Part shown: positions 9,985 to 41,678 of the stretch, piece after piece | Position numbering within the stretch: position 1 is the stretch's first letter | How the letters are laid out: the number at the start of each line of letters is the position of its first letter | DNA from: an uncultured Actinomycetes bacterium | GTDB taxonomy: Bacteria; Chloroflexota; Dormibacteria; Aeolococcales; Aeolococcaceae | Assembly: GCA_964508345.1 (NCBI GenBank) | Contig: CAZDTK010000001.1 | Span: 236,012-300,011 of the forward strand | Length of the DNA: 64,000 bases | Reading direction: 5' to 3' | Program-made: the position numbers and the translations under genes | Notes under the pieces: generated by a model | Seen by the model: the letters and a program-made list of their open reading frames with translations, nothing else | Database searches by the model: none | What the model was told of the DNA's origin: nothing

Positions 9985-10053
9985 GGGAGCCGGTCCACGC
10001 TGCCGGTGGCGGTCGGGGTCATGGGTGCGGCTCCACCGCCCGGTGCGCTCCGC

Positions 10054-22072: not shown

Positions 22073-22150
22073 GCGCCCATAGCTCAGTCCGGATAGAGCG
22101 TCTGACTACGGATCAGAAGGCCAGGGGTTCAAATCCTCTTGGGCGCGCCA
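22073..22150 (+). tRNA. tRNA-Arg (anticodon ACG)
   Basis: Cloverleaf folded by hand: acceptor GCGCCCA/TGGGCGC, D-arm GCTC-AGTCCGGATA-GAGC, anticodon arm TCTGA-CTACGGA-TCAGA (anticodon ACG), T-arm AGGGG-TTCAAAT-CCTCT, encoded CCA. Confidence 0.9.
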
Positions 22151-24680: not shown

Positions 24681-24775
24681 TCGCATACCCCGCGGAAGGG
24701 TACCTGAGCGAGGCGGTTACGGCTACCCCGCAGCGCACCGACCGGGCGCATACGTGCCAGATCGGGAACTTGGAC

Positions 24776-25348: not shown

Positions 25349-25708
25349 TCGGGGTCATCGCCACCCAGTTTGCGGCCGGCGGCGTGCCGATGACAATCAC
25401 TCGTCGCGCGGCTTCGGGGCCATCTGAACCGGCCTCTCCCCCTGCCGCCACGGGACGCTCTGTATTTCGTCGAGGTCGATCGGGTCCCGCCCATTTCGGT
25501 CAACTGCGGGGCGGCGCCACCGACCCAAGGCCCTCACACTTGGCTGACTTAGCACGTTTGCAGCGCTCCGTGGTGCGGTCTATGCGGTCTGACGGCGCTT
25601 GACCAATCATGTATTTCTCACGCTGCTTACTCCACATCCCAAGCCACTCGAGCCGACGCCCTCCCGTGGGGTCGCACATCCGTTCAGGCGCTGATAAGAT
25701 GGTGGCCG

Positions 25709-27055: not shown

Positions 27056-27133
27056 GTTTCGGATCCCAAGCGCTGACAGTGTTGTCGTCAAGGAAGAGGC
27101 GATCACCCTCGGGAACGGTGATGACCTCGAGGC

Positions 27134-28315
27134 ATGATGGTTGACGAATTAGATTCCGAGGAACCAGAAGAGGGCGCGGGCGAGGGGGCGTTCCTTGAAG
27201 CTACGGCAACCGACTCAGCTACGGACCCCAAGAACTGGGGCGCTCTTGCTGAAGCTCTTAAGGGGACCGCGAAAGACTTCACGGCTAGGATGAAGCGAGA
27301 GTCCAAAGCCCTAGAGACGCTCCGCGCGTGCGAAGGCCTCGATCGAGGAGAAAGCAAGCGACTCCGGCGTCTCCAGGACTTAGCGCAACAGGGCCTTGAC
27401 TCCATGTTGTACTCGGACGGTTCGCGCCGGCGCCGGCGGTTTAACCTCCCTGCCCTAGCCGACTACAAACTCGTTATCGCATTCGTTCGGTATGGGGCAA
27501 GGGCCGCGCTGAAGGTGGCCTCACCGAGAGCGGGTGACTTCCTGAACAACCAGCTGAGGGGTCAGTGGGCTGAGCGTGTGGTTCTGTCGCTGACGCGGCG
27601 GCTCGATGACATCGTCTTCGTTCCGTTCGGCCCTTCGAGCGCGGCGATGCCAGGCGATGACCGATACCGCGAATTAACGGCCGCTTATCGAGAGATCGTG
27701 CTGGTGGAGGGGAAGCGACCCGACCTTCTGGCCTTCGATGGGGCTGTGTGGAGCGGCCTCGCCCCGGGCGACATCCGGCGAACGGAGAGTTGGCCGGAAC
27801 GGCTTCTTGTTGAAGAGGACATGGCGATAGTGAGACGGGGGATGTGTGGGGCTGAGGTTAAGTGCAGCACATGGCATTACGCAAAGAGACGAGAAGCGGG
27901 AGGATCGCCACTTGCGGTCACTGCTAAAGAGGAGGAACTTGCAGACTTCGAGCACTGGGAGAGAGAGACTGGCTTGCCAGTGGTATTCTTCCAGGTGCTC
28001 TTTGACGAGATCTACTGCATGAGCTTCGCGCGCATGCTTGCGGCAATTGACCGCGGGTTTCTTTACACGAGTGGGGATTACGTGCTGGATCGACAAACGG
28101 GAGGGGGGGGAAAGGTATTCCACCGGTTCAAGTTAGTAGATTTCAAGCATCTTTTCGGATCGGTGGTTTTTCCGAACGACTCACGCGGGGTAATTCGCGT
28201 GCTGCAGGATGGGAGCGTGGTACCGTTCTTGGAGTACCTGCCTGCAGAGGCGGAGGTGTTGAGTGAGTCAATCTTCCGAGAGGAGGTTGGATTCCGTCAC
28301 GCGACCTCGCCGTGA
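27134..28315 (+). CDS. hypothetical protein, candidate PD-(D/E)xK restriction endonuclease partner of Dcm
   Basis: 393 aa immediately downstream of dcm on the same strand; acidic N-terminus; candidate nuclease motif RPD ... AEVKC; no confident family assignment. Confidence 0.45.
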   Translation: MMVDELDSEEPEEGAGEGAFLEATATDSATDPKNWGALAEALKGTAKDFTARMKRESKALETLRACEGLDRGESKRLRRLQDLAQQGLDSMLYSDGSRRRRRFNLPALADYKLVIAFVRYGARAALKVASPRAGDFLNNQLRGQWAERVVLSLTRRLDDIVFVPFGPSSAAMPGDDRYRELTAAYREIVLVEGKRPDLLAFDGAVWSGLAPGDIRRTESWPERLLVEEDMAIVRRGMCGAEVKCSTWHYAKRREAGGSPLAVTAKEEELADFEHWERETGLPVVFFQVLFDEIYCMSFARMLAAIDRGFLYTSGDYVLDRQTGGGGKVFHRFKLVDFKHLFGSVVFPNDSRGVIRVLQDGSVVPFLEYLPAEAEVLSESIFREEVGFRHATSP

Positions 28316-28806
28316 CTTGCCTTCCTGCAGATCTGGAGCTCTCCAGAAACCCCGGGGAGGTGGACCAGATTGCGAATCTCTGGATTCTGGCGCGAGGGAC
28401 GAACTGCAACATGAGCGCGAAGGATCCGAACAAGTTCTTCCGGGATGTCGAGGACAATACTCTTAGACATGCCGCGATTGAACGCTCACCTCTGACCTAT
28501 CACGGGTTTGAGTCGTTCGTTGACGTGTGGCAAGAGGCGCTCAAGGAACGGCTAAGCGAGCGCTTGGGCTTGTCGGCGGAGGATCTCCGTACCCTCTCCA
28601 GTCCGATAACTCGAGCGATGCCATGGGGAGCGTGCTCGGGATCCGCGCGTAGGTTAGAGGCCGTGACTCGCAAGCAAGCTGGTCTGATCGCGTCGCTCAC
28701 GTATTGCAAGAGTAGGCGGTGCGAGGCAGGACGAGAGGAGCTCCGCGATTATGATCAGGATTCAGCCACGGGGGAGTTGGGTAACAGGTTCCTCTACTGC
28801 TGTTAG
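28312..28806 (+). CDS. hypothetical Cys-rich protein translationally coupled to the upstream ORF
   Basis: GTG 28312 overlaps the upstream TGA (GTGA); 164 aa; C-terminal Cys cluster (YCKSRRCE...LYCC); no homology recognised. Confidence 0.45.
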   Translation: MTCLPADLELSRNPGEVDQIANLWILARGTNCNMSAKDPNKFFRDVEDNTLRHAAIERSPLTYHGFESFVDVWQEALKERLSERLGLSAEDLRTLSSPITRAMPWGACSGSARRLEAVTRKQAGLIASLTYCKSRRCEAGREELRDYDQDSATGELGNRFLYCC

Positions 28807-29558
28807 TGGCCGGACCGCCTGTCTTGCATTGCGTGGATTAGGATGCCCGCGATAAGGGTAATGACGGTGAGAGAGACAGTCCAAGAAATGAGGACCGGGC
28901 GAGAGAAACCGCGTGTGGCAGCCAGGTAGACCCACCATCCCTTGGCGAAGAGAAGCGCAGCCACGGCGCCGAACACTATCAAGATCCAGTGGCCTGCGGC
29001 TGCGAGTTGGACAGTTGAGGGCGCAGCATGTGGACGGGTTGTCGTTCTCCGGCGGGTGTGGATTCCTCGTTGCCAGGCCATCGGCGCGCCGTCCGAATCG
29101 GCGAGCACCGAGGCGTACTGGAGGACGGCCACGGAGAGGGCCAGAGAGACCGCCACCGCGATCACCGGTTGTTGACTAGCAGTCATCGCTGCACCGACCT
29201 CCACTGCGACGATTAGTAGGGGCGCCAGCACTTCAAGGAGCCCTCTGAGCGCTTGCTCGTAGTATTCGACCATCAGGAGCAGCGCCCCGAGGAAGCCGGC
29301 TCCGACGCTGGCGATCTGCCAACTGGTCCCCCACGTCGGTGGGGTCCCAAGGCCTAGCACACGGCGTGGCACTGGGAGGACGTAACTCTCCACGGCGATG
29401 GTGATCGAGAGCATGGCGAGCAGCACCATAAACTCGCGGAGCCGCCGTCGGCGTCTGGCCGCGATCTCTGTCTGCTCCAGCCGTTCCAGGGAAGTCCCGA
29501 GCCGGACTCGGAGCACGACGGGATTGGTTCGGCGGCTCTTGTCGGGCTCCTGGCTCAT
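28803..29558 (-). CDS. multi-pass membrane protein, unknown function
   Basis: 251 aa with 5-6 hydrophobic helices; tail-to-tail overlap with the preceding ORF; lies at the distal edge of the island. Confidence 0.5.
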   Translation of the reverse strand: MSQEPDKSRRTNPVVLRVRLGTSLERLEQTEIAARRRRRLREFMVLLAMLSITIAVESYVLPVPRRVLGLGTPPTWGTSWQIASVGAGFLGALLLMVEYYEQALRGLLEVLAPLLIVAVEVGAAMTASQQPVIAVAVSLALSVAVLQYASVLADSDGAPMAWQRGIHTRRRTTTRPHAAPSTVQLAAAGHWILIVFGAVAALLFAKGWWVYLAATRGFSRPVLISWTVSLTVITLIAGILIHAMQDRRSGH

Positions 29559-29913
29559 GTCACCACAGGAGCAGAAATCGGGCTGCCTCGGCAGCGGCTC
29601 GGCCGGTCTGGCTGCTTAGGCGCGCTTCCGTGCCATGTGTAGTTGGAAGGCGAGAATCCCATCGTCACGACCAGTACGTTAGGCCTTCCGCACCGGTGCT
29701 TCGACCCCGCTACACAGTCGTAACGCACGCCAGTCCGACCGGGACAAGCCAGAGTGAGGCAGCGACCGCGTCCACCTCGCGGACTGGCGGCTGATTAGCG
29801 GCAGCGCGAGACAGTCCCGCTGCGCGCCCACTACTGCCGGATTCCGCCAGCCGGCGGCGTCGGGCGCCGCTGCCGACGGAGGTGCCCGCAGCCGACGAAG
29901 CGGCGATGCGCTT

Positions 29914-30606
29914 CTACCCGCCGCGCACTCCAACGAACCCGAGCATTCCCTCATCCAGGTCCGTCAGCGACCCCAGCACCACGTCCGCCTCCGCATACCG
30001 TGGGTCCCCCGCCACCAGCGGGTCGGGCACCGCGATGCAGCGCATCCCCGCCGCCTTGGCCGAGGCCACCCCGCTCGGCGAGTCCTCGATCGCCAGGCAG
30101 CGCTCGGGCGGCACCCCCAGGCGCCGGGCGGCGGTGAGGTAGACGTCCGGGGCGGGCTTGCTCCGCACCTCCTCCATCGCCGAGCAGCGCACCTCGATCG
30201 ACTCCAGGCCGAGACGCTCGCAGACCACCTCGATCATCCGCGGCGGTGACCCGGAGGCGATGGCGACGGGCAGCCCCAGCCGCCGGAACAGCGCGAGCGC
30301 CTCGGCCACCCCGGGCATGGCCACCCCGGTGGCCCGCACCTCGGCCGCCACCAGGTCGATGATCCGCTCCGCGACCTCTGCGTCGCTCGGCCGGCGCACC
30401 CCGTCGGGCGTGGCCGGCTCGCGCTGCCGCCACACCGGGATCACGGAATCGATGGTCTGCCCTATCGAGCCGAGGCACTCCTCCTCGGTCAGCTCGACCC
30501 CCAGCTCGCGGAAGACCCGCTCCTCCGCCACCCGCCACACCGGCTCGGTGTCGATGAGCAGGCCGTCCATGTCGAGGATGACCGCCTCGATCGGGGGCCG
30601 ACTCAA
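29914..30606 (-). CDS. HAD-superfamily hydrolase (beta-phosphoglucomutase/sugar-phosphatase-like)
   Basis: Motif I ILDMDGLLIDTE; motif III/IV KPAPDVYL ... AIEDSPSGVASAKAAGM. Confidence 0.75.
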   Translation of the reverse strand: MSRPPIEAVILDMDGLLIDTEPVWRVAEERVFRELGVELTEEECLGSIGQTIDSVIPVWRQREPATPDGVRRPSDAEVAERIIDLVAAEVRATGVAMPGVAEALALFRRLGLPVAIASGSPPRMIEVVCERLGLESIEVRCSAMEEVRSKPAPDVYLTAARRLGVPPERCLAIEDSPSGVASAKAAGMRCIAVPDPLVAGDPRYAEADVVLGSLTDLDEGMLGFVGVRGG

Positions 30607-31412
30607 AGGGCGCGGATCTTGTGCGCCTTCTCCACCAGCTTCTCGGCCCGGGCCGGGTCCACCGGGTTCCAGGTGATCCCGTCCACCTTGAGGCTGGTGC
30701 CCACGATCACCCCGTCGGCGATCGAGAGGATCTCGGTGAGCCGGTCGGCCTGGACCCCGGTGTTGGCGAAGACGGGCGTCTGCGGGACCGCCTCCTTGGC
30801 CTGGCGCAGGTCGCTCATGGCGAAGGGGACCCCCGCCTCCGGGCCGCTGATGAGGATGGCGTCGACGCCCAGGAAGGCGGCGCTCTTGGCCCTCTCGGCG
30901 ACGGTGCGGGTGCCGATCGTGCTGCTGAACTCCGGGGTGATGTTGTCGAAGAGGGCGACGTCCCCCGCGCCGATGTTCTCCCGGTAGGCGGCGAGGTCGC
31001 CCAGCGCCGGGGCGAAGAGGCCCATGTCGCTCTCGTATACGCCGGTGAAGACCTCGCGGACAAAGGTCGCCCCCGTCGCCCGGGCCAGGGCCAGGCTCGC
31101 CCGCGCGTCCCAGAGGATGTTGACCCCGAAGGGGACCCGGATCGAGGAGCGCAGCTCGCCGATCACGGCCGCCATCGCCGCCGGGATCTCCGGACCGACC
31201 GCGAGCTGGTAGGGGATGTCGGCCTCGTTGCAGAAGAGCACCGCGTCGACGCCCGCCTCCTGGAGCACCAGGAGGTCCTTGCCGACCACGTCGACGAGGT
31301 GCTGGCGCCCCGCCTCTCGATCATGCCGCGGCCGGCCCGGCAGTCCGGGGAAGTGCAGCATCGCGATCACCGGCTTGGAGACACCGAACCTCTGCTCGAG
31401 CGACATGGTCAT
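30603..31412 (-). CDS. BtpA/SgcQ-family TIM-barrel protein (paralog A)
   Basis: 269 aa; VIAMLHFPGLPG ... LFCNEADIPYQ ... ISGPEAG pattern of the BtpA (PF03437) family; 4-nt overlap with the HAD gene. Confidence 0.8.
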   Translation of the reverse strand: MTMSLEQRFGVSKPVIAMLHFPGLPGRPRHDREAGRQHLVDVVGKDLLVLQEAGVDAVLFCNEADIPYQLAVGPEIPAAMAAVIGELRSSIRVPFGVNILWDARASLALARATGATFVREVFTGVYESDMGLFAPALGDLAAYRENIGAGDVALFDNITPEFSSTIGTRTVAERAKSAAFLGVDAILISGPEAGVPFAMSDLRQAKEAVPQTPVFANTGVQADRLTEILSIADGVIVGTSLKVDGITWNPVDPARAEKLVEKAHKIRAL

Positions 31413-31430
31413 GACGGACTCCTTCCTGAA

Positions 31431-32240
31431 TCAGAGTGCGCTGTGCGCTCTCACGAACTCGATGACCGCCCGGTTCCACGGCCCGGGATCCTCCCAGAAG
31501 GCGGCGTGCCCTCCCGGCACGCTGCTCCAGGTGGCGTGGGGCAACGCCTCGCAGAGGCGGCGGGAGAGCTCCTCCCGGATGATGATGTCGTCGCTCGCGG
31601 CCATCACCAACGCCGGCACGGTGATCGCCGCCACCCGGCCGATGGCGTCGTGGTCGACGAGCGCGGCCGTCTGGGCGGCGAAGGTGGCGGCGGGCTGGGT
31701 GCTCTTCTGCGCCTCGGCGATCAGCTCCTCGACCCGCTGCGGATGGGCGGCGTAGAAGGCGGGGCTGTAGATCCAGGGCGCCTGCAGCCGCACCATCATC
31801 GCCATCCCCGCCGCCTCCGCGACCTCCGCCCAGCCGAGGAACGCGGCGCGGGTGAAGGGATCCGGTGTCGCGTAGGTGTTGGCGAGCACCAGGGAGCGCA
31901 GGTCGCCGGGGTGGGCGATCGCGTACTCCTGGGCGATCACGCCGCCCATGGAGACGCCGGCGAGGTGGAACGGCGCCAGCCCCAGCTCACGGGCGATGGC
32001 GTGCAGGTCCTCCGCCATCTCGGCGCTGGTGTACGGACCGGGGGGCTGGCTGGAGAGCCCCACCCCGCGGTTGTCGAAGCTCACCACGCGCAGGCCACTG
32101 GAGACGAAGGCATCGACCTGGTTGGCCCATGCCTCCAGGTCGTCGCCCACCCCGTTGACCAGGACCAGCGTCTCGGTGCCGTCGCCATGGATCCGGTAGT
32201 GGAGGTGCAGCGCGCCGGTGTGGATGGAGCCCTCGATCAT
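31431..32240 (-). CDS. alpha/beta-fold hydrolase
   Basis: ATG at complement 32238-32240; nucleophile elbow GVSMGG, HGDG...LVLVNG; ATGA overlap with the upstream gene. Confidence 0.75.
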   Translation of the reverse strand: MIEGSIHTGALHLHYRIHGDGTETLVLVNGVGDDLEAWANQVDAFVSSGLRVVSFDNRGVGLSSQPPGPYTSAEMAEDLHAIARELGLAPFHLAGVSMGGVIAQEYAIAHPGDLRSLVLANTYATPDPFTRAAFLGWAEVAEAAGMAMMVRLQAPWIYSPAFYAAHPQRVEELIAEAQKSTQPAATFAAQTAALVDHDAIGRVAAITVPALVMAASDDIIIREELSRRLCEALPHATWSSVPGGHAAFWEDPGPWNRAVIEFVRAHSAL

Positions 32241-33151
32241 CCGAGACCTCGCTCCTGCATCGCATCCTTCCACAGCTCGACGGACTCCAGCAGCCCGTCG
32301 AGCACCGCCCCGTCGTCGTCCTCCCAGCCGGGGATGATCTCGAGGATGAGCAGCAGGTCGCCGGCGCCCGCCTCCGCCAGGGTGTCGAGCACCCGCCCGG
32401 GGTCGATGCGCCCCTGGGCGTTGCGCTCGGGGGTGAAGGGCCAGTGGTGGTCCCCCAGCGCGTCGGACTGCTGGAGCTGGACCTCGACGAGCCCGCGGCC
32501 GAAGTGGCGCAGCCACGCGTACGGGTCGCGCTCGTCGCCGCTCGTCCCCGGCACGCACTGGTGGCCGACGTCGAGGCAGAGCCGGACCGGCACGTGGGCC
32601 AGGTCCCCCTCGCTGAGCAGCCCCTCGACCACGTCCATCGTGGACGGCTCCCGCACCGCCACCAGGTTCTCGATGAGCAGGTGGTCGAGGCCCGCGTCGC
32701 GGGCGTGGCCGGCCAGCTCGATGAGGTCCCTTCTCAGGTCGGACCAGCGCTCCAAGCGGAGGGTCGGGTCCGACCAGTCGGGGACGCTCATGGTGCCGAC
32801 GTGCCCGCCGGTGGCGGTGGCCCCCAGCTCCGCGGTCACGTCCACCACGCTCCGGAACCAGCGCAGCGCGGCCCGGCGCCGCTCGGGGTCGGGGTGCATG
32901 AGCAGGTTGGTGCCGTACGCGGCCAGCCCGGTGAAGGTCGTCTCGGCGCGCAGGCCGTGATGGCTGAGGGCCGCCCGGGTCAGCTCCACCGAGCGATGGC
33001 GCTCCACCGGGTCGTCGAATCCCTCGACGAGGTCCAGGGACAATTCGACGAGCAGCAGCCCGAGATCGTCCCTCACCACCCGCGCCCAGTCCTCGGGCCG
33101 GGGCCAGCGCTTGAGGGCAAAGCAGTTGTTGATGCCGAGCCGCGCACGCAT
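32237..33151 (-). CDS. sugar-phosphate isomerase/epimerase (xylose-isomerase-like TIM barrel)
   Basis: ATG at complement 33149-33151 with a GGAGAGG RBS; MRARLGINNCFALKRW..., metal-binding pattern typical of AP-endonuclease-2/xylose-isomerase-like TIM barrels. Confidence 0.75.
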   Translation of the reverse strand: MRARLGINNCFALKRWPRPEDWARVVRDDLGLLLVELSLDLVEGFDDPVERHRSVELTRAALSHHGLRAETTFTGLAAYGTNLLMHPDPERRRAALRWFRSVVDVTAELGATATGGHVGTMSVPDWSDPTLRLERWSDLRRDLIELAGHARDAGLDHLLIENLVAVREPSTMDVVEGLLSEGDLAHVPVRLCLDVGHQCVPGTSGDERDPYAWLRHFGRGLVEVQLQQSDALGDHHWPFTPERNAQGRIDPGRVLDTLAEAGAGDLLLILEIIPGWEDDDGAVLDGLLESVELWKDAMQERGLG

Positions 33152-33152
33152 C

Positions 33153-34697
33153 TCAGACCTCTCCTGTGGGTTCGACGCGCACCACCGGCGAAGCGAGGAG
33201 CGTGCGGTAGCGGGCGTAGATCTGCTGGTATCGCTCGCGGTTCTCTCGGATGGGCTCCATCCGCACACCGGGGCGGTAGCCGGCCGCGGTCGCCTCGGCG
33301 GCGTCGCGGTAGACACCGGTGCCGATCCCGGCCAGCAGCGCCGCGCCGGCGGCGGTGGCGTCGCCAAGCACGCGCACCACGGGGATGCCGAGGACGTCGG
33401 CCTTGATCTGGTTCCACGCGTCGAGCAGCGCCCCGCCGCCGGAGACGCGCAGCTCGGTGGACGGCGACGAGGCGCGCTCCAGGGTCTCAACGCGGGCCCT
33501 GATCCCGAAGGCGAGCCCCTCCATCACCGCGCGGGCCCAGGCGGGCTGCTCGTGGCGCAGCGAGAGCCCGGTCACCGCGCCGCGCAGCGCCGGGTCGTCG
33601 CGCTCCCCGTCGCCCAGCACCGGCGCGAAGAGGAGGCCGTGGGCACCCGCCGGCTCGGCGGCGGCGTCCCGGTCCATGCGGACGTAGTCGGCGGCGCGCG
33701 GCCGCCGGTCGGGCCCGGCGTAGAGGAGCTGGGCGACCCAGTCGAGCGCCTCCCCGGTGGTGTTGATCCCCACCTCGGTCATGTAGCCGTGGTCGGCGAC
33801 CGCGCTCGGGTAGTGGGTGACCTCGGGGTCCTCGAGCGGCTCGGCGACCACCGAGTTGAGGCAGGTGGAGCTGCCCGCCATCTCGCTGAGCGGCCCCGGC
33901 GCGGTGACCCCCGCGCCCACCGCGCAGGCGATGCTGTCCCCCGCGCCGGCGACGACGGGGACCTCGCCGGCGAGCCCCAGGCGGCGCGTCAGCGCGGGAC
34001 GCAGATGACCGACCACACCCCAGGAGGGATGGATCGGGGGCAGGAGCGAGGCGTCGAGGTCGAGGTCGGCGAGCAGGCCGGTGGCCCAGCGCCGCCCCCT
34101 CTGGTCGAGCAGCGCGGTCGCCGCCGCCATGGTCCAGTCGGTCGCCGTCTCCCCGGTGAGCGCCAGGATCACGCAGTCGCTCGGCTGCAGGAAGTGGCGC
34201 GTCCGGCGGAAGACCTCCGGCTCGTGGGCCCGGATCCACAGCACCTTGGCGGCGACGTGGAAGGCGGCGGGCACGTGGCCGGTGAGGGCGTGCAGCGCGG
34301 ACGTCCCCACCCGCTCGCAGATCCAGGCGGCCTCCGCGGTCGCCCGATTGTCCCTGTAGATGATCCCGGGACGCAGGGGGAGGTCGTGACCGTCCATCGG
34401 CACGACGCTGGGGCACTGGCCGGTCAGGCCGATGGCCAGGACGCGGCAGCCGGGGCCCAGCTCGCGCACCAGGCCGCAGAGCGCGGAGACCGATGCGGTC
34501 TGCCAGCGGCGGGCGTCCTGCTCGGCCCATCCCTCGGCGGGCAGGTCGGTCGGGTAGGCGCGGCGCACCTCGCCGAGCGGAGCCCCGGCGACGTCGAAGG
34601 CGGAGGCCCGGGCCCCGGACGTCCCGACGTCGACGGCGACCAGCACCTCACGGCCCGGCGTGGCCGCGCCGGTCGTCTGCGCGCGGGGGATGGGCAT
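33153..34697 (-). CDS. FGGY-family carbohydrate kinase (xylulokinase-like)
   Basis: VAVDVGTSGARA N-terminal motif and GGGA near the C-terminus; 514 aa. Confidence 0.85.
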   Translation of the reverse strand: MPIPRAQTTGAATPGREVLVAVDVGTSGARASAFDVAGAPLGEVRRAYPTDLPAEGWAEQDARRWQTASVSALCGLVRELGPGCRVLAIGLTGQCPSVVPMDGHDLPLRPGIIYRDNRATAEAAWICERVGTSALHALTGHVPAAFHVAAKVLWIRAHEPEVFRRTRHFLQPSDCVILALTGETATDWTMAAATALLDQRGRRWATGLLADLDLDASLLPPIHPSWGVVGHLRPALTRRLGLAGEVPVVAGAGDSIACAVGAGVTAPGPLSEMAGSSTCLNSVVAEPLEDPEVTHYPSAVADHGYMTEVGINTTGEALDWVAQLLYAGPDRRPRAADYVRMDRDAAAEPAGAHGLLFAPVLGDGERDDPALRGAVTGLSLRHEQPAWARAVMEGLAFGIRARVETLERASSPSTELRVSGGGALLDAWNQIKADVLGIPVVRVLGDATAAGAALLAGIGTGVYRDAAEATAAGYRPGVRMEPIRENRERYQQIYARYRTLLASPVVRVEPTGEV

Positions 34698-34711
34698 GGC
34701 GCGCGGCTCGC

Positions 34712-35668
34712 CTATCCGCGGACCAGCTGCGCGCTCGCCTTGTCGCGGTCAAGGGTGATCAGCGCACCCAGGAGCGCGCCGGTCGTGTAGTCGCTGCCCG
34801 GGTTGAGGATCACGGTCTTGCGATCCCCCAGCTTGCGGATGCCGGAGGCCTCGTGGATGTGCCCGTGCAGGCCGAGCAGCGGCCTGCGCTCCAGCTCGAT
34901 GTCGCGCACCGCGGTGCTCCCCACCGCCTTCATGTTCACCTGGCCCATGGTCGCCTGCACCTGCAGGTTGGCGTCCAGCTCGGGCGCCTCGTCGAGCTGG
35001 GTGTCGAAGGGCGGCGCATGCAGGTTGAAGACGGCCCGCTCCGGGTTCTGCAGCTGGTCGGCCATCGACTTGTAGACGGAGGCGAGCTGCTGCTCGTCCT
35101 GCTCGCGGAAGGTGTGCCAAGGGGTGGTGTTGGCGTAACCCCAGCTGATCATCTCGTGCTGGTCGTCGATCCAGACCACCTTGCCCTCGGCGTGGACGCC
35201 CCACGGCGCCGTGTCGACCAGCTCGCCCAGCTCCACCGGGTCGTCGTTGCCCAGCATCATGTAGAGGGGGAGCTCGAGGGGGCGGAGCCGCTGGTCGGCG
35301 AGGTTGAGCCAGTCGGTGAGCCGCTCCTTCATGAGCCGCAGGAAGAGCGCGTCCAGCGTGCCCGCCTTCTCCATCGCCTCCAGCTCGCCGGGCTCGGCGC
35401 GGTACGGGTAGTAGCCGTGGTCGCTGATGAGCCGCTCCAGCTCCTCCAGCTCGGGGCCCTCCTGCACCCTGTAGGGGGTGCCGACGAAGTTGCACTCCCA
35501 GATGCCGCCCGGGCCCTTGACGATGGATTGGATCGCCTTGCCGGCGAGGTCGCCACCCAGGATCATGACGCTGGGCTCGTACACCTTCGCCGCGTTGATG
35601 AACTTGCGGAAGCAGAGGCTGGAGCCGTGCAGGTCGCTGACGAAGTAGATGAGCGTCTTCCTGGCCAT
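34712..35668 (-). CDS. calcineurin-like metallophosphoesterase
   Basis: IYFVSDLHGS ... GGDLAGK ... GNDD ... GHIH metallophosphatase motifs. Confidence 0.75.
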   Translation of the reverse strand: MARKTLIYFVSDLHGSSLCFRKFINAAKVYEPSVMILGGDLAGKAIQSIVKGPGGIWECNFVGTPYRVQEGPELEELERLISDHGYYPYRAEPGELEAMEKAGTLDALFLRLMKERLTDWLNLADQRLRPLELPLYMMLGNDDPVELGELVDTAPWGVHAEGKVVWIDDQHEMISWGYANTTPWHTFREQDEQQLASVYKSMADQLQNPERAVFNLHAPPFDTQLDEAPELDANLQVQATMGQVNMKAVGSTAVRDIELERRPLLGLHGHIHEASGIRKLGDRKTVILNPGSDYTTGALLGALITLDRDKASAQLVRG

Positions 35669-35738
35669 CAGCGCGCTCCGTGGACGAGCTTGCTGTCCGT
35701 CGGCGGCGCGGTCCGGGTCGGACCCGTCGCGATGCCCA

Positions 35739-36560
35739 TCAGCGCGCTCCGGCGGGCTCGCGGACCCTGCCCACCGCCTCCATGAACCTGCCCGCGCGCT
35801 CCGGATCCACCTCGTTCCAGGTGATGCCGTCGCGCTTCAGGTGGGTGCCGACGATGGCGCCGTCGGCGACGGCGAGGATCCCCGCCACCGTCTCCGCAGT
35901 CACCCCGGTGTTGGCGAGGACGGGGACCTGGGGCACCGCATGCTTGGCGGCGCGCAGATCCTCGATGTCGGTTTCGGTCCCCGTGATCTGCCCGCTGATG
36001 AGGAGCGCGTCGATCCCCAGATAGACGGCGCTCCGGGCCCGCTGCGCGACGGTGCGGTGGCCCAGCGGACTGGCGAACTCCGGGGTGATGTTGCTGAAGA
36101 CGGCCACCCCGGCGGCGCCGATGTGGGCGCGGTGGTCGCCGACCGCGCCCATGTCAGGCCGCATCAGGCCGAGGTCACTCTCGTAGACGCCGGTCGCCAC
36201 CTCGCGGATGAAGGACGCCCCCGTCGCCCGGGCGACCGCCAGGCTTGCGATCGGGTCCCAGACCAGGTCGACCCCGAAGGGCAGCCGCAGCACGCTGCGC
36301 AGCTCGCCGATCGTCGCCGCCATCGCCGCCACCGCCTCGGGACCGACCCGCAGCTGGTAGGGGAGGTCGGCCTCATTGCAGAAGAGGAGGCCGTCGACGC
36401 CGGCGGCCTGGAGGGTCTCCACGTCACGGGCGACGGCCTCGGCGATGGGAGGCATCCCCGCCACCCGGTCGTGGCCGGGGCGGCCCGGCAGGGCGGCGAG
36501 GTGGACCATCGCCACGATCGGCCTGTCGACCCCGAAGAGGTCGCGCAGCAGTGGGCTCAT
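35739..36560 (-). CDS. BtpA/SgcQ-family TIM-barrel protein (paralog B)
   Basis: 273 aa, ~50% identical by eye to paralog A (IVAMVHLAALPGRPGHD ... LFCNEADLPYQ ... LISGQITG). Confidence 0.8.
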   Translation of the reverse strand: MSPLLRDLFGVDRPIVAMVHLAALPGRPGHDRVAGMPPIAEAVARDVETLQAAGVDGLLFCNEADLPYQLRVGPEAVAAMAATIGELRSVLRLPFGVDLVWDPIASLAVARATGASFIREVATGVYESDLGLMRPDMGAVGDHRAHIGAAGVAVFSNITPEFASPLGHRTVAQRARSAVYLGIDALLISGQITGTETDIEDLRAAKHAVPQVPVLANTGVTAETVAGILAVADGAIVGTHLKRDGITWNEVDPERAGRFMEAVGRVREPAGAR

Positions 36561-36632
36561 GCCGGCTCCTCGGAGCCCCGTGCAGCCGCGGCGCCCATCC
36601 CGGCCCCAGACGTCATCCCAGCTCCTCAGAGC

Positions 36633-37469
36633 TCATTCGAGCTCGTGTGCCGAAGAGCCGTTCTCTCCGGCGGTGTCGGTTGCCACCGCGTGGGCCTCGG
36701 GCACCACCGTGACGATCTCGACCCCCGCCCGCTCGATCCGCTCCACCTCGTTGGCATCGGCGCTGGGGTCGGTGACGATCACCGCGACCCGCTCGATGGG
36801 GGAGACCGTGCTCATGGCCACGTCGCCGAACTTGGACCCGTCGGCGACCACCATGATCCGCTCGGTGTGCTCCAGGGCGGCCCGGATGACCTCGGCCTCG
36901 CGGTCGTCCAGGTCGGTGATGCCGCGATGGGCGGTCACCCCCGCGGCCCCGATCACGGCGATGTCGGTGTTGTACCGCTGCACGCCCTCGACCGCCGAGG
37001 CGCCGACGCAGCTCAGCTCGTCCTGGCGGACCAGGCCGCCGGCGATGATCACCCGCACCCGGCGCGTGCCCAGCATGCTGGCCACCGCCAGCGAGGGGGT
37101 GACCACGACCAGGTCCTCGGCGGGGGGCATGGCCCGGGCGAACTGCTCCACGGTCGAGCCCACCCCCACGAACATCACCCGGACCCCGGCGGTGAGCTGG
37201 GCGGCCCGGCGGGCGATCTGCACCTTGGCCTGGGCGTGGTGGAGCATCCGGGCGTTCTGGCCGACCTCGAAGGCCCCCACCGCGCGCACCACCCGGGTGG
37301 TGGCGCCGCCATAGGTCCGGCGGACGAAGCCGTCGCGCTCCAGCCGGCCGAGGTCGCGGCGGATGGTCATCTCGGAGACCTGGAAGTCACGGGCGAGGCT
37401 GCTCACCTCGACCGCCTGGTCCGCCGCCACCCGCTCCAGCAGCTTCAGGCGCCGCTCGACCGCCAGCAC
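36633..37469 (-). CDS. DeoR/GlpR-family transcriptional regulator
   Basis: N-terminal HTH (RLKLLERVAADQAVEVSSLARDFQVSEMTIRRDL) plus a C-terminal sugar-phosphate-binding DeoRC domain. Confidence 0.85.
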   Translation of the reverse strand: MLAVERRLKLLERVAADQAVEVSSLARDFQVSEMTIRRDLGRLERDGFVRRTYGGATTRVVRAVGAFEVGQNARMLHHAQAKVQIARRAAQLTAGVRVMFVGVGSTVEQFARAMPPAEDLVVVTPSLAVASMLGTRRVRVIIAGGLVRQDELSCVGASAVEGVQRYNTDIAVIGAAGVTAHRGITDLDDREAEVIRAALEHTERIMVVADGSKFGDVAMSTVSPIERVAVIVTDPSADANEVERIERAGVEIVTVVPEAHAVATDTAGENGSSAHELE

Positions 37470-37696
37470 CCGTTCCTCCTCAACCTGCCATTCTCCGACG
37501 TGTCCGATTCTGAGCGCCTTTCCGTGTCTGTGCCGAGCCGATGTTCGGTCCTGTCCGTCGGGATGTCCCGGAGCGGCCCTTCGATGTGAGGTGATGTTCT
37601 CACACTTGACATTCGTGTTCGGTTGTGTTCGACTTTAGCCCGCCCCAGCGCAGCTGTCAAGCGGGGGAGTTGCGGCACGGTTGATGGAGGGATGCC

Positions 37697-39325
37697 ATGG
37701 CGACAGAGGCCCGGCCGGGTAGCCGGCTGTTCGTTCGCAACAGCACGGGGTTGGTGCGCTCCGCCTCGGCGCTCGACGCGACCATCTTCAACGCGGTCAT
37801 CTCGGCACCCATCGGGTCCACCCTGGCCTGGTCGATCTTCTTCACCCTGGTCGCCTTCCCGGGGGCTGACCCGATCGGCGTGCTGCTCATCACCCTGATC
37901 ATCAACATCCCGGTGTTGATCATGTTCGCCCTGCTGGGAGCGAGCATGCCCAGGGTCGGAGGTGACTACGTCTGGGTGAGCCGCGTTCTCACCCCACCGT
38001 TGGCCCTGATCTCCAACCTCTGCATGATCATGGGCGGGCTGCTGGGAGCCGCCTACTTCGCGAAGTTCTTCGCGGTCTTTGCGGCGGGGCCGGCGCTGGT
38101 GGCGTTCGGCACCCTGTTCACCAACAGCACCCTGATCAGCTGGGGCTCCTCCTTCGAGACCAACACCAGCTGGATCCTGGGTGCGTCGCTCTTCATGGTC
38201 GTGCTGGTGACCGCCATCCTCATCCGGGGGACGAAGGCGACCTTCCGCGCGCAGAACTGGGCCTTCCTGATCGGCATGATCGGGATGGTGGTGGCCTTCA
38301 TCTGCCTGGGCGTGGTCAGCCAGCACACCTTCTTCTCCAACTTCGACACCCTGAACAAGAGCTTCGGCGGCGGGACCGTCCAGCAGGTGATCGCGGCCGC
38401 GGGCGCTCAGCACGCGGCTCCCAACCTGGGCAACCTGAACGCCACCCTGCCCGCGCTCTTCTCGGTCGAAGGTTTCATGATGTGGAACTTCTGGTCGGTG
38501 TACATGTCGGGGGAGCTGAAGAGCGCCTCCAACCGCACCCGCCAGCTGACCGTCATGTTCGGCGCGCTGGTCTTCGACGTCGTGCTCCTCATCCTGGGCG
38601 CCTTCGTCCTCTTCCACACCGCCGGCTACAACTTCGTCTACGCGCTCAACGCCGCCCCCCACAACTACGCGATCCCCTCGGGGCCCTTCTACTCCTTCCT
38701 GGCGGCGCTGGCCTTCAACACCCCGGTGCTCACGATCATCATCCTGGGCTGCTTCCTCTTCTGGAGCCTGCCGTCGATGATCGCCAACACCTTCATGCCC
38801 ATCCGGTCGTTCTTCGCCTGGTCGTTCGACCGGCTGATGCCGGAGGGGCTGGCCACGGTCAACGAGCGCACCCACTCCCCGATCAACGCGATCCTGGTGG
38901 CCAACGCGATCATCGCGGCGCTCACCATCTGGAGCGTGTACTCCAACGTCTTCCAGCTCGTGCTGGGACTTATCGTCCTGGCCGGCTGCCTGGCGGTGGT
39001 GATCGTCGCCGTGGCGGCGATCGCGCTGCCGTTCCGGCGTCCCGAGCTGTACAAGGCCTCCCCGGCCAACGTGAACTTCCTGGGGATCCCGGTGCTCTGG
39101 ATCGTCGCCCCGCTCTCCATCATCGTCTTCGTGGTGCTGGCGATCGTCTCCACCCACTACCCGGCGCTGGTGATGAACGGGAACTCTGCGGACTGGTGGT
39201 GGATTCCGGCCTGGTTCGGCGGCCTCATCGTCGGTGGGTGCCTGCTCTACTACGTGCCGAAGTTCATCCGCGCCCGGCAGGGCATCAACGTCAGCTTCGT
39301 TTACAAGGAACTGCCGCCCGAGTAG
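37697..39325 (+). CDS. APC-superfamily amino-acid/polyamine/organocation permease
   Basis: 542 aa, ~12 TM helices, GGDYVWVSR motif; RBS GGAGGG; divergent from the DeoR regulator. Confidence 0.85.
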   Translation: MATEARPGSRLFVRNSTGLVRSASALDATIFNAVISAPIGSTLAWSIFFTLVAFPGADPIGVLLITLIINIPVLIMFALLGASMPRVGGDYVWVSRVLTPPLALISNLCMIMGGLLGAAYFAKFFAVFAAGPALVAFGTLFTNSTLISWGSSFETNTSWILGASLFMVVLVTAILIRGTKATFRAQNWAFLIGMIGMVVAFICLGVVSQHTFFSNFDTLNKSFGGGTVQQVIAAAGAQHAAPNLGNLNATLPALFSVEGFMMWNFWSVYMSGELKSASNRTRQLTVMFGALVFDVVLLILGAFVLFHTAGYNFVYALNAAPHNYAIPSGPFYSFLAALAFNTPVLTIIILGCFLFWSLPSMIANTFMPIRSFFAWSFDRLMPEGLATVNERTHSPINAILVANAIIAALTIWSVYSNVFQLVLGLIVLAGCLAVVIVAVAAIALPFRRPELYKASPANVNFLGIPVLWIVAPLSIIVFVVLAIVSTHYPALVMNGNSADWWWIPAWFGGLIVGGCLLYYVPKFIRARQGINVSFVYKELPPE

Positions 39326-39487
39326 GTCGGGGCGGCCCCCACTCCCGGGTCAGGACGGCCGGCTAGCCACCGGCCGCCCTGGCCCATCGCGTTACCATCC
39401 AGCCCCGCAGATGTCGGAGAACGGAGACCCGGCCCGCGGTCCTGCTCGCGTTGCAGAGACGCAAGCCCAACCCCCAGCATTGCTCCC

Positions 39488-40294
39488 ATGACCCAGAACG
39501 GAACCCCCACCCCCGGCCCGGATCCGATGCCCGAGAACGGAACCCGCATCCTCCCCGACATCCACGACGAGGCGACGCGCCTCACCACGGCAGTTCTGCA
39601 AGCCGGGCTGCACGCTCGCCTGCTGGGCGGCCTGGCCGTCTGGCTGCGCTGCCCCAGCGTGCGCACCAGCCACTTCGCTCGCAGCTACGCGGACCTGGAC
39701 TTCGCGATCGCCAAGGGCGCCGGCTCAGGGTTCAAGGCGTTCCTCGTCGCCGAGGGCTACGTCGGCGACCAGTTCTTCAACGGCCTCCACGGTGACACCC
39801 GCCTCTACTACCAGGCCCCCGACAGCCGCTGGTCGATCGACGTCGTCATCGACGAGCTGGTGATGTCACACAAGCTCGACCTCCGCGGCCGCCTCGACGG
39901 CCCGGCCCCCACCATCAGCCTCGCCGACCTGCTGCTCAGCAAGCTGCAGGTCTGGGAGATCAACCGCAAGGACCTGGGCGACGCGCTCTGCCTGCTCGCC
40001 GACCACGGCATCAGCGAGGACGACCGCGACGCCGACTCGGTGAGCCTGCCCCGCCTGCGCAAGGTGCTGGCGACAGACTGGGGCTTCTGCCACACCACCG
40101 AGCGCAACCTGGAGAGGCTGGACGACCTGTGGGGGGAGGAGCCGCTCCCGGCGGCGCCCTTCAACGTCGGCGCCCAGATCGCCACGCTTCGCGCTGCCAT
40201 CGAGGCGGCCCCCAAGACCGTGGCCTGGAAGATGCGCAGCCGGGTCGGCGAGCGCGTCCGCTGGTACGAGACCCCCGAGGAGGTCGGTCACTGA
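39488..40294 (+). CDS. hypothetical protein with a nucleotidyltransferase-like GG...DLD motif (AbiEii/MNT-like?)
   Basis: LLGGLAVWLRC...SYADLDFAI matches the G[GS]-x(n)-D-x-D NTase signature; no partner antitoxin seen; assignment tentative. Confidence 0.4.
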   Translation: MTQNGTPTPGPDPMPENGTRILPDIHDEATRLTTAVLQAGLHARLLGGLAVWLRCPSVRTSHFARSYADLDFAIAKGAGSGFKAFLVAEGYVGDQFFNGLHGDTRLYYQAPDSRWSIDVVIDELVMSHKLDLRGRLDGPAPTISLADLLLSKLQVWEINRKDLGDALCLLADHGISEDDRDADSVSLPRLRKVLATDWGFCHTTERNLERLDDLWGEEPLPAAPFNVGAQIATLRAAIEAAPKTVAWKMRSRVGERVRWYETPEEVGH

Positions 40295-40377: not shown

Positions 40378-40623
40378 ATGATTACCGTCCCCGAGGCCGC
40401 CCGCCGGAGCGGTCGTAACCCTGAGACGATCCGGCGATGGATTCGCAGTGGACGTCTGCGGTCCGAGAAGATCGGAACCCAGCATCTGGTCGACGAGGCC
40501 TCCGTGGACGCGCTCGCGGCCCCGGATGCCATCGAGCTGCCGGACGCGTGGCGCCGGGCCGACGGGGGGCGCGCGATGCCCGCTTGGGAGCAGTTGGTGC
40601 GCGACGGGCGCGACGCGCACTGA
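40378..40623 (+). CDS. HTH (excisionase/MerR-like) DNA-binding antitoxin
   Basis: 81 aa; MITVPEAARRSGRNPETIRRWIRSGRL HTH; immediately upstream of a PIN gene. Confidence 0.65.
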   Translation: MITVPEAARRSGRNPETIRRWIRSGRLRSEKIGTQHLVDEASVDALAAPDAIELPDAWRRADGGRAMPAWEQLVRDGRDAH

Positions 40624-40631
40624 CGATACGA

Positions 40632-41042
40632 ATGCGTCTCGTCCTGGATTCTTCCGCCGCGCTGCGAGCGAGCATGTCCGAGGAAGCGCGCGCGCAGATC
40701 GTGGACCATGAGCTCCTGGCTCCGCCTCTGATGTGGTCGGAGACTTGCTCCGCGGTGCACGAGGCGGTGTGGCGCCGCGAGATCGACGACGCCGAAGCTG
40801 AGGCCGTCCTCCGCGCCCTGGGGGAGCTCGGCATTCGGCGCCGCAATCCCGCCCGGCTCCACGCCGAGGCCTACCGGCTCGCCACCGAGCTCGGTTGGGC
40901 CAAGACCTACGACGCGGAGTTCCTGGCCCTCGCACGGCTCGAGGATGCCCAGGTTCTCACCGCCGACGGCCGGCTGCGCCACGGCGCAGATCGCACCGGT
41001 CTGGTTCTCGACCCCTCCGAGCTGCCCACCTCCCGCGGCTGA
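40632..41042 (+). CDS. PIN-domain ribonuclease toxin (VapC-like)
   Basis: ATG 40632, 9 nt after the antitoxin stop; LVLDSS (first acidic residue), TYDAEFLALA, VLTAD motifs. Confidence 0.75.
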   Translation: MRLVLDSSAALRASMSEEARAQIVDHELLAPPLMWSETCSAVHEAVWRREIDDAEAEAVLRALGELGIRRRNPARLHAEAYRLATELGWAKTYDAEFLALARLEDAQVLTADGRLRHGADRTGLVLDPSELPTSRG

Positions 41043-41072: not shown

Positions 41073-41678
41073 TCAGCCGAAGAGCCGGTCGATCAGGTCG
41101 CGGGTGAGCGCGAGATAGGCATCGCGATCGGGGCTGCCCCCGTGCATGGCGGGGAGCATGGCCGCGTGGGCTCCGGCGACAAGCACCCTCGCCAGGAACT
41201 GGGGATCCCCGGACCGGAGCTCCCCTGCGGCCATGGCGGTCTCCAGGTACCTCGCGACGATGCCGACGACCGGCTCCAGCTGCTCGCTCTCCGAGGCGCC
41301 GGTATCGTGGAAGAGCAGGTGGTGGAGCTCGCGGTTCTCGACCGCGAAGTCGAACATCGAGGCGGCGAAGCGCTCCAGCCTGACGGCGGCGGGCTCCCCG
41401 GCGGGCGGGTTGGCCTCCAGCAGGCCCCCGGCGTGCCGGACTATGCCGTCGCCATACTGGCGCCGGACGGCGGCGACCAGGTCCGCCCTGGAGCTGAAGT
41501 ACAGGTACGGGGTGCCTTTGGCGACGCCGGCGGCGGCCGCGACCTCGTCCATGGTCGTCCGTTCGAGGCCGCCGCGCAGGAGCGCCCGCCGGGCGCCGGC
41601 GAGGATGGCCTCCCGCCGCGCCTCGGGGTCGAGACGCACCCGGCGGGCGGGTCCCCTGCGTCGGGCTTCTGCTGGCAT
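41073..41678 (-). CDS. TetR/AcrR-family transcriptional regulator
   Basis: N-terminal HTH EAILAGARRALLRGGLERTTMDEVAAAAGVAKGTPYLYFSSRADL. Confidence 0.85.
   Translation of the reverse strand: MPAEARRRGPARRVRLDPEARREAILAGARRALLRGGLERTTMDEVAAAAGVAKGTPYLYFSSRADLVAAVRRQYGDGIVRHAGGLLEANPPAGEPAAVRLERFAASMFDFAVENRELHHLLFHDTGASESEQLEPVVGIVARYLETAMAAGELRSGDPQFLARVLVAGAHAAMLPAMHGGSPDRDAYLALTRDLIDRLFG

Follow-up and report, generated by a model that had tools for sequence, protein, structure and literature searches.

Ten adjacent genes in the DNA analyzed here, a 64,000-nucleotide stretch of contig CAZDTK010000001.1 from an uncultured bacterium of the Dormibacteria (hereafter, the window), form a conserved unit at positions 29914 to 40294. 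The unit is of a familiar operon type, with a regulator, a transporter, a kinase, and sugar-phosphate enzymes, and no characterized pathway accounts for it. We propose that it is a DeoR-repressed, two-module catabolic locus for the breakdown of a sugar or polyol derivative that is zwitterionic or cationic, a tentative reading to which we give a probability of about 0.4. In the lineage of the window, a trio of genes encoding an APC permease, a metallophosphoesterase, and a nucleotidyltransferase-like (NTase-like) protein of 268 amino acids (aa) has been joined to a BtpA sugar-phosphate module, replacing the short-chain dehydrogenase/reductase (SDR) and the ATP-binding cassette (ABC) importer that accompany BtpA elsewhere. 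The limits of the unit were set where they are because the genes flanking it on both sides are not conserved. A preliminary description of this DNA had drawn the cluster from 29914 to 39325; the genes within those bounds were rightly included, but the conserved NTase-like gene beyond them was omitted.

Conservation across relatives

A scan of one genome per species returned 180 relatives of the second BtpA paralog (BtpA2), and all locus counts given here refer to the best 80 of these 180. Gene order and counts were obtained by tblastn with the window proteins, and many loci were cut by contig ends. All best 80 loci came from metagenome-assembled genomes (MAGs) of Dormibacterota, Chloroflexota (Limnocylindria and "Chloroflexia"), and Actinomycetota, including Streptosporangiaceae. 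Nearly everywhere the order was the same, with a divergent permease gene and then genes for the DeoR regulator, BtpA2, the phosphoesterase, the FGGY kinase, the xylose-isomerase-like (XI-like) protein, the alpha/beta hydrolase, BtpA1, and, where present, the HAD phosphatase, an arrangement conserved far beyond chance.

Homologs of the phosphoesterase and BtpA in any copy were found in 80/80 loci, followed in frequency by the FGGY kinase (74/80), the APC permease (72/80), the XI-like protein (71/80), the DeoR regulator (70/80), and the NTase-like protein (63/80). Two copies of BtpA were present in 58 of the 80 loci, the alpha/beta hydrolase in 56 (53 of these 56 with two BtpA genes), and the HAD phosphatase, counted at a minimum of 45% identity, in only 17. 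The core comprises the APC permease, the NTase-like protein, the DeoR regulator, BtpA, the metallophosphoesterase, the FGGY kinase, and the XI-like protein, an EryC-like TIM barrel. Three members listed in the preliminary description, although indeed present in the window, are accessory by these counts: the extra BtpA copy, the alpha/beta hydrolase, and the HAD phosphatase. Approximately 10 loci were minimal versions, limited to genes for the permease, DeoR, a single BtpA, the phosphoesterase, the FGGY kinase, and the XI-like protein. The NTase-like gene adjoined the permease gene in long versions and was convergent, after the XI-like gene, in minimal versions. Further conserved neighbors were sought in long Actinomycetota contigs, and none were found there. 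In one Actinomycetota MAG from a long-read assembly (L107), the DeoR gene and the region encoding the permease and the NTase-like protein were broken into short open reading frames (ORFs), which stems either from uptake-module decay or from frameshifts introduced by the assembly.

The BtpA/SgcQ proteins

Knowledge of the BtpA/SgcQ family, which reportedly dates from 1997, is confined to a photosystem phenotype and the cryptic sgc operon of E. coli. Both window paralogs belong to this family over their full length, as the preliminary description had proposed, scoring 228 and 233 bits against PF03437 (cut-off, 30) and 236 and 231 against TIGR00259 (cut-off, 153). Over 264 aa, identity to E. coli SgcQ was 47% for BtpA1 and 45% for BtpA2, and the paralogs were 59% identical to each other; the match to SgcQ, together with the FGGY kinase and DeoR regulator in the operon, places both in the SgcQ-type subfamily. 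Assignment to the BtpA of photosystem I biogenesis (NF045918) was rejected, with scores of 145 and 146 against a cut-off of 400. The description of the family as biochemically poorly defined also held: sequence and profile searches of the PDB returned nothing significant and no family member, and the literature on BtpA, SgcQ, PF03437, COG0434, the sgc operon, BtpA with FGGY kinases, and the Thermus TTHB loci yielded no biochemical assignment. A 2026 study still calls the function of the sgc operon putative.

The AlphaFold2 model of BtpA1 (predicted local distance difference test score, pLDDT, 86) is that of a phosphate-binding TIM barrel, and the last three strands of the family profile, in its C-terminal third, aligned with the phosphate-binding strands of TrpA. 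Comparison of both paralogs, single-copy forms, SgcQ, and the Thermus, Rhizobium, and Brucella homologs gave the invariant set H20, N62, E63, D102, R119, E120, S128, D129, N157, E161, G190, T218-G219, G238-T239, and K242, which in the model is predicted to lie at strand ends and on two flexible loops. Predicted strands bear H20, N62/E63, D102, R119/E120, and N157, and the sole family-wide invariant lysine, K242, follows beta8. Since no predicted strand carries an invariant lysine, a class I (Schiff-base) aldolase is unlikely, and this candidate was rejected, as was membership in the OMPDC suprafamily, whose DxK motif BtpA appears to lack. The acid-rich residue set suggests instead metal-assisted or general acid/base enolate chemistry.

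In a neighbor-joining tree, BtpA2 formed one faster-evolving monophyletic clade, and the slowly evolving BtpA1 grouped with the single BtpA of minimal clusters. The BtpA1 and BtpA2 clades showed parallel substructure, and the duplication is therefore older than the spread of the operon, with the pair inherited together. A functional split between the copies was considered and rejected, as the nine paralog-specific positions were conservative and none was among the invariant candidate catalytic residues.

BtpA clusters in other lineages

SgcQ-like BtpA proteins (45 to 54% identity) were present in 190-odd records when annotated plasmids were searched by tblastn. In Thermus thermophilus, Rhizobium laguerreae, Brucella sp., and Labrenzia, BtpA occurred with a DeoR regulator, an FGGY kinase, an SDR, and a CUT1-type ABC importer; a HAD or XI-like gene was sometimes added to DeoR-BtpA-FGGY clusters, and the series FGGY-HAD-BtpA was found in Brucella and Labrenzia. 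A Sinorhizobium cluster had BtpA after an alpha/beta hydrolase, as in the window, and also held a PIG-L deacetylase and, beyond an inserted IS3 transposase, a DegT aminotransferase. In a distant BtpA subfamily (28 to 36% identity), the partner kinase was of the ribokinase/PfkB type, and further partners were a phosphotriesterase-like protein, a GATase-like protein, TenA, and M20 peptidases. A sugar-phosphorylating step, either a kinase or a phosphotransferase system (PTS), stood beside BtpA in nearly all contexts examined, and amide- or amine-processing enzymes were frequent companions.

Among plasmids of Allorhizobium, Pantoea, Ponticoccus, and Rhizobium (L094, L095, L104, and L105), we also observed a conserved cluster holding a distant BtpA, composed of genes for LacI, a ribose-type ABC transporter, a phosphotriesterase-like protein, a GATase-like protein, a ribokinase, BtpA, TenA, and an M20 peptidase.

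The amine-processing companions bear on one alternative, deglycation of an Amadori-type compound (a 1-amino-1-deoxy-ketose) by an analogue of E. coli frl, which we regard as quite unlikely. According to this scheme, the APC permease would import the ketoamine, the FGGY kinase would phosphorylate its terminal hydroxyl, the XI-like protein would epimerize C3 as FrlC does, and BtpA would carry out a reverse Amadori reaction (TrpF/HisA-like) to release an aldose phosphate and the free amine. The parts list is frl-like by analogy (APC permease, XI-fold epimerase, kinase, and repressor); BtpA neighbors elsewhere include the M42 protein SgcX, GGT, M20, GATase-like, and TenA proteins, PIG-L deacetylase, and DegT aminotransferase; and E. 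coli XylB tolerates a C1-modified xylulose, 1-deoxyxylulose. However, the invariant phosphoesterase and NTase-like protein are left without a role, no similarity of the permease to FrlA was detected, FrlC is matched by the XI-like protein at the superfamily level only, an SIS-type deglycase is missing, and BtpA appears not to have the catalytic residue pattern of TrpF and HisA.

The permease, phosphoesterase, and NTase-like trio

The motifs and predicted fold of the phosphoesterase assign it to an uncharacterized subfamily of the calcineurin-like superfamily. Residues D12xH14, G38-x-D40 (GGD), G140-N141-D142-D143, H217, G269-H270, and H272 were invariant in 33 homologs; motif III reads GNDD, without the His, and an insertion occupies approximately residues 45 to 130. 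The Pfam match was weak and below the cut-off. The AlphaFold2 model (pLDDT, 86) found as its best Foldseek matches the uncharacterized aq_1956 and TT1561, followed by SbcD and Rv0805, with a probability of 1.00 to 2yvt, 1uf3, SbcD, and Rv0805. The protein has no signal peptide and is therefore cytoplasmic. The permease scored 87.6 bits against PF13520 (cut-off, 27) and remained below TIGR00909 (36 against a cut-off of 557); a sequence search of the PDB found no relative of it.

No Pfam family was assigned to the 268-aa protein, and a sequence search of the PDB returned nothing significant. It carries the motif RxxGGxA ... YxDxD ... D, typical of pol-beta-type nucleotidyltransferases, in which R44-x-x-G47-x-x-A50, D69-x-D71, and D118 were invariant in 8 diverse members. 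PF14907 was matched by 7 of these 8 members, at best with an E value of 7e-4 and always below the curated cut-off, and the best PDB profile match over the motif, weak at an E value of 0.3, was ANT(2'')-Ia, an aminoglycoside 2''-nucleotidyltransferase. The family is large, with 2020 cluster representatives (50% identity clusters) at an E value of 1e-3 or below. The true start of the window protein may be Met14.

The same families occur together far from this locus. In the plasmid tblastn search, phosphoesterase and permease matches fell in the same two plasmids, adjacent to each other, in Thermomicrobium roseum and Halobellus limi; a third plasmid, from Desulforapulum autotrophicum, gave a partial phosphoesterase match only (26% coverage; E value, 2e-4). 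With the wider contexts obtained by profile search and neighborhood look-ups included, a permease homolog lay next to a phosphoesterase homolog in seven other lineages, with identities to the window proteins of 37 to 44% for the phosphoesterase, 25 to 30% for the permease, and 30 to 41% for the NTase-like protein. An NTase-like gene stood beside the pair in five contexts (Halobellus, Natronococcus, and three metagenome contexts) and was not found beside it in Thermomicrobium. In Natronococcus pandeyae, the trio lies among genes for FolD, an aldehyde dehydrogenase (ALDH), a Zn-dependent alcohol dehydrogenase (ADH), MTHFR, and GcvT. One archaeal or anaerobe contig held two MttB genes and genes for a corrinoid protein, Fe-ADH, AFOR, RACo, and MtrH; a second held two MttB genes and genes for a corrinoid protein, MtrH, and AFOR; and a third held genes for Fe-ADH and AFOR. 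Neighbors were GcvT and a CN-hydrolase in Thermomicrobium relatives and a class III aminotransferase and an M20 peptidase on one further contig. Apart from the NTase-like gene in Thermomicrobium, these trios of haloarchaea, archaea or anaerobes, and Thermomicrobium consist of the same three families as that of the window, without a kinase, EryC-like, or BtpA partner. The trio is an ancient portable unit that elsewhere probably feeds amine and amino-alcohol (choline-like) catabolism, and its neighborhoods point to amine-bearing substrates.

Within one group of these contigs (L098, at 5570 to 6334 and 9315 to 10211, L099, and L100), one contig carried two NTase-like copies. From their gene content, the contigs of this group look like an undescribed quaternary-amine (choline-like) utilization cluster; the literature on MttB with a phosphoesterase or choline yielded no biochemical assignment. 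A 252-aa hypothetical protein of L099 was considered as a homolog of the 268-aa protein and found not to be homologous.

Such neighbors would be expected for a route from choline to betaine and on to demethylation, and they favor an alternative in which the locus serves the use of a glycerophosphodiester or phospho-amino-alcohol (glycerophosphocholine, glycerophosphoethanolamine, or phosphocholine). The permease would import the zwitterion, the phosphoesterase would split it in the manner of GpdQ, the kinase would phosphorylate the glycerol, and the other genes would be secondary. Trio relatives are found beside ADH/ALDH genes together with GcvT, MTHFR, FolD, MttB, corrinoid protein, and MtrH genes, and the GNDD motif III without His presumably resembles that of YfcE/MJ0936-type diesterases. 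Peat and soil are, moreover, rich in phosphodiesters. Nevertheless, we consider this explanation very unlikely: glycerol needs neither the EryC-like enzyme nor BtpA, both of which are core; the kinase lies far below the GlpK threshold (146 bits; cut-off, 590); genes degrading choline or ethanolamine are neither in nor next to the cluster; and identity to the trio homologs is low.

A bolder reading, which we offer as a long shot, is that the trio is an unrecognized uptake and activation system for amino-alcohol or amino-sugar compounds in Archaea and Bacteria and that BtpA converts a phosphorylated N-substituted ketose to a central sugar phosphate. Possible mechanisms would be O-nucleotidylation followed by phosphodiester cleavage and, for BtpA, a reverse Amadori reaction or another enolate step. 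If true, this would be the first biochemical function for the BtpA/SgcQ family.

Kinase, EryC-like protein, and accessory enzymes

The FGGY kinase did not reach the xylulokinase model TIGR01312 (299 against a cut-off of 380) and was 29% identical to E. coli XylB, so identification as XylB was rejected. The XI-like protein had its best PDB sequence matches in 3qxb, a putative xylose isomerase (E value, 1.6e-36), and Brucella EryC, 4k3z (6e-28), and aligned over its full length with EryC from the ery locus of R. leguminosarum at 31% identity; we regard this protein as a candidate ketose-phosphate 3-epimerase or isomerase. Its closest plasmid homolog (38% identity; L089, 8995 to 11376) lies on a plasmid of Amycolatopsis sp. 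AA4, where it sits with an RPE-like epimerase and a HAD hydrolase in a 7-deazapurine (preQ0-type) nucleoside biosynthesis cluster. The alpha/beta hydrolase fell below the cut-offs for PcaD (142 against 256) and RutD (134 against 238), and neither name was adopted. The HAD protein passed the HxpB model NF008087 (203.4 bits; cut-off, 191), and the HAD motifs DMDG, S/T, K, and ED are readable in its sequence.

The preliminary description had suggested an ordinary pentose, pentitol, or rare sugar as the substrate. Its view of an apparently catabolic sugar-phosphate cluster stands, but a plain sugar leaves unexplained the core trio, which elsewhere is tied to amine and amino-alcohol genes. In such a route, the kinase would yield a ketopentose phosphate, the XI-like protein would be a 3-epimerase resembling UlaE or SgbU, BtpA would replace an AraD-type 4-epimerase or act as an aldolase to give xylulose-5-phosphate or triose phosphates, and the phosphoesterase, hydrolases, and permease would be peripheral. 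In line with this, the kinase is closest to xylulokinases, three unrelated settings pair BtpA with a candidate 3-epimerase (an XI-like protein in the window and in Thermus and the RPE-like SgcE in E. coli), and the combination of SDR, kinase, and BtpA in Rhizobium and Brucella fits a sequence from polyol to ketose, ketose phosphate, and central metabolite. The phosphoesterase, permease, and NTase-like genes are, however, as invariant as BtpA and form a module of their own tied to amine metabolism, and APC carriers are not known to import sugars or polyols. Orthology to XylB and to EryC fails in both cases, and the cluster has no polyol dehydrogenase. We thus judge a plain sugar substrate to be unlikely.

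Regulation

The divergent spacer between the permease and DeoR genes holds TTGACA-17-TAAAGT (37660 to 37632), tandem CGAACA repeats (37631 to 37615), and an inverted TGTCAAG (37611 to 37605). A scan of 11 kb for sigma-70-like promoters found 1 site (0.3 expected), located in this spacer and facing the DeoR operon. The layout of TTGACA-17-TA(A/G)AGT, then tandem CGAACA, then inverted TGTCAAG was kept across 55 spacers, in which the commonest 8-mers were GTGTTCGA (41/55) and CTTGACAC (37/55). The element is probably, judging from its sequence and position, a DeoR operator placed over the transcription start; we take its repeats to resemble GlpR half-sites. The DeoR protein reached no equivalog in the NCBIfam scan, and a search for riboswitches and other RNA elements across the locus found none. 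DeoR regulators likewise accompany BtpA and FGGY genes in Thermus, Rhizobium, Brucella, and Labrenzia and SgcQ in E. coli.

A DeoR regulator with a divergent permease and operator-like repeats is typical of inducible catabolism, and this counts against a non-catabolic role in salvage, repair, or biosynthesis (e.g., of a compatible solute or cofactor precursor), with the permease as an exchanger. A kinase, a HAD phosphatase, and a phosphoesterase would fit a logic of phosphorylation, conversion, and dephosphorylation, as would the FGGY-HAD-BtpA series of Brucella and Labrenzia, and the association of the distant BtpA subfamily with TenA and ribokinase-like genes is reminiscent of vitamin salvage. 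Yet the HAD gene is present in so few loci (17 of 80), and the patchy distribution across three phyla looks so much like horizontal transfer, that we hold such a role to be highly improbable.

Proposed pathway

From the gene families, their order, conservation, and modularity, the folds, and the cytoplasmic location of the products (no signal peptides), we infer the reactions, the order of steps, and the class of substrate of the two-module catabolic locus proposed above. The APC permease would import a zwitterionic or cationic compound, and the phosphoesterase and NTase-like protein would process a phosphoester or nucleotidyl linkage in the cytoplasm, freeing a sugar or polyol moiety. The XylB-like FGGY kinase would then phosphorylate a terminal hydroxyl, and the EryC-like TIM barrel would epimerize or isomerize beside the carbonyl. 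BtpA/SgcQ, holding the phosphate at the usual beta7/beta8 site, would catalyze the committed step, an enol(ate)-type reaction yielding a central sugar phosphate; this reaction could be an isomerization, an Amadori-type deglycation, or a metal-assisted retro-aldol reaction. The alpha/beta hydrolase, second BtpA, and HxpB-like phosphatase may broaden or tidy up the pathway, and the inducer of DeoR would likely be a phosphorylated intermediate.

Several points weigh against this proposal. The cluster contains no dehydrogenase, recognizable aldolase, or transketolase, and the route to central metabolism therefore rests wholly on BtpA. The phosphoesterase could be a late-acting monoesterase rather than an early diesterase, and a kinase combined with up to two phosphatases per operon fits poorly with a simple catabolic pathway. 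The BtpA-linked FGGY kinases found elsewhere are not orthologs of the window kinase, which is only 28 to 30% identical to those adjacent to BtpA in Thermus, Rhizobium, and Brucella. In addition, the trio homologs elsewhere are only 25 to 44% identical, so that their substrates may differ from that of the locus itself, and the NTase-like assignment lies below every curated threshold.

Locus layout and neighboring genes

The composition of the window is approximately 72% GC around the locus. The ORF listing and Pfam/NCBIfam scans gave eight co-directional minus-strand genes and a divergent APC permease gene, and the gene content, order, and strands of the preliminary description proved correct (Table 1). 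Two public contigs that carry BtpA1 at 100% identity, one from JGI sample 3300014200 and one from an ENA metagenome assembly, have automatic gene calls that agree with ours. Of two ATGA overlaps described earlier, that at 32240-32237 is real, but that at 30606-30603 reads TTGA, the HAD gene having a TTG start codon that overlaps the BtpA1 stop codon. The TTG start was assigned because it is the sole in-frame start that retains the nucleophile Asp12 of the DxD motif. The remaining junctions are gaps of 1 to 72 nucleotides.

Table 1. Genes and putative control region of the conserved locus (positions in the window)
Feature	Position	Strand	Evidence
HAD-IA phosphatase, HxpB-like, 230 aa	29914-30606	-	PF00702, PF13419, NF008087
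BtpA/SgcQ paralog 1 (BtpA1), 269 aa	30603-31412	-	PF03437, E 1e-67
Alpha/beta-fold serine hydrolase, 269 aa, GVSMGG nucleophile elbow	31431-32240	-	PF00561, E 4e-29
XI-like TIM barrel, EryC-like, 304 aa	32237-33151	-	PF01261
FGGY carbohydrate kinase, XylB-like, 514 aa	33153-34697	-	PF00370, PF02782
Cytoplasmic metallophosphoesterase, 318 aa	34712-35668	-	Six motifs and predicted fold; Pfam weak
BtpA/SgcQ paralog 2 (BtpA2), 273 aa	35739-36560	-	PF03437, E 5e-69
DeoR/GlpR-family repressor, 278 aa, first gene of minus-strand operon	36633-37469	-	PF08220, PF00455
Putative control region in divergent spacer	37605-37660	-	Promoter scan and conserved repeats
APC-superfamily permease, 542 aa	37697-39325	+	PF13520
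NTase-like protein, 268 aa	39488-40294	+	Invariant pol-beta-type motif

A lower-GC island (61 to 62%, compared with approximately 72%) at about 22000 to 30000 in the window abuts the HAD gene. It holds genes for a C5 DNA methyltransferase (25709 to 27055), a candidate AccI-like restriction enzyme (27134 to 28315), an HATPase_c protein, and hypothetical proteins, which were matched only on contigs of the same genome, and it is probably a mobile restriction-modification island. At the other border (40378 to 41042, plus strand, and 41073 to 41678, minus strand), overlapping small HTH_17 and PIN-domain genes, which by their domains look like a toxin-antitoxin pair, are followed by a TetR regulator gene common to the closest relatives L001 and L002 only.

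Implications

The large BtpA/SgcQ family (PF03437), with members in cyanobacteria, E. coli, rhizobia, Thermus, and archaea, has no assigned reaction, and the locus supplies it with defined and strongly conserved partners, which makes its function a testable enzymology problem. Three core families without known function, BtpA/SgcQ, the phosphoesterase, and the NTase-like protein, come together in one operon, and the permease-phosphoesterase-NTase-like unit is itself a second unknown unit, located elsewhere beside genes for choline-like amine catabolism. The hosts (Dormibacterota, Limnocylindria, and soil Actinomycetota) are abundant and largely uncultured in peat and permafrost, and the substrate is therefore likely to be an environmentally relevant organic nitrogen or phosphorus compound.

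Comparison with known systems

The cluster maps onto no characterized pathway by orthology, given its identities of 29% to XylB and 31% to EryC, the absence of a match to FrlA, and the equivalog cut-offs that were missed, and in this respect the earlier view of an uncharacterized pathway was borne out. Likeness to E. coli frl (FrlA, FrlB, FrlC, FrlD, and FrlR) is by class only, comprising the APC permease, XI-fold epimerase, kinase, and repressor; frl has a PfkB kinase, an SIS deglycase, and a GntR regulator, whereas the window has an FGGY kinase and DeoR, and SIS and PfkB domains were not found in it. Membership in frl was rejected, as the permease matched FrlA with an E value of 3.6 and the XI-like protein was 24% identical to FrlC over 173 aa, a superfamily-level match. 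The erythritol pathway of Brucella and Rhizobium has in common with the window an FGGY kinase, an EryC-family TIM barrel, and a DeoR-type regulator, but the two kinases are 27% identical, and ery loci contain neither BtpA nor the trio. Erythritol catabolism was likewise rejected, since EryB (GlpD-like), TpiA2/EryH, and RpiB/EryI were not found in or beside the cluster and identity to EryC is only 31%.

The E. coli sgc operon (sgcR-sgcE-sgcA-sgcQ-sgcC-sgcB-sgcX), to which the preliminary description had likened the cluster, shares with it an SgcQ-type protein with the same invariant residues and a DeoR regulator, and both loci pair a sugar-phosphorylating step with a candidate ketose-phosphate epimerase. 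The likeness ends there: sgc has a Gat-type PTS (SgcA, SgcB, and SgcC), but the window has the APC permease and FGGY kinase, and a Pfam scan found no PTS domain in its ten genes. Similarly, sgc encodes the RPE-like SgcE and the M42 hydrolase SgcX, whereas the epimerase candidate of the window is an EryC-like PF01261 protein and an M42 domain was not found. The sgc operon also has a single BtpA and is without metallophosphoesterase, NTase-like, alpha/beta hydrolase, and HAD genes. Closer in content are the Thermus and Rhizobiales plasmid clusters, which share with the window a BtpA of 45 to 54% identity, a DeoR regulator, an FGGY kinase, and sometimes a HAD or XI-like gene; where those clusters have a CUT1 ABC importer and an SDR, the window has the APC permease, phosphoesterase, and NTase-like trio.

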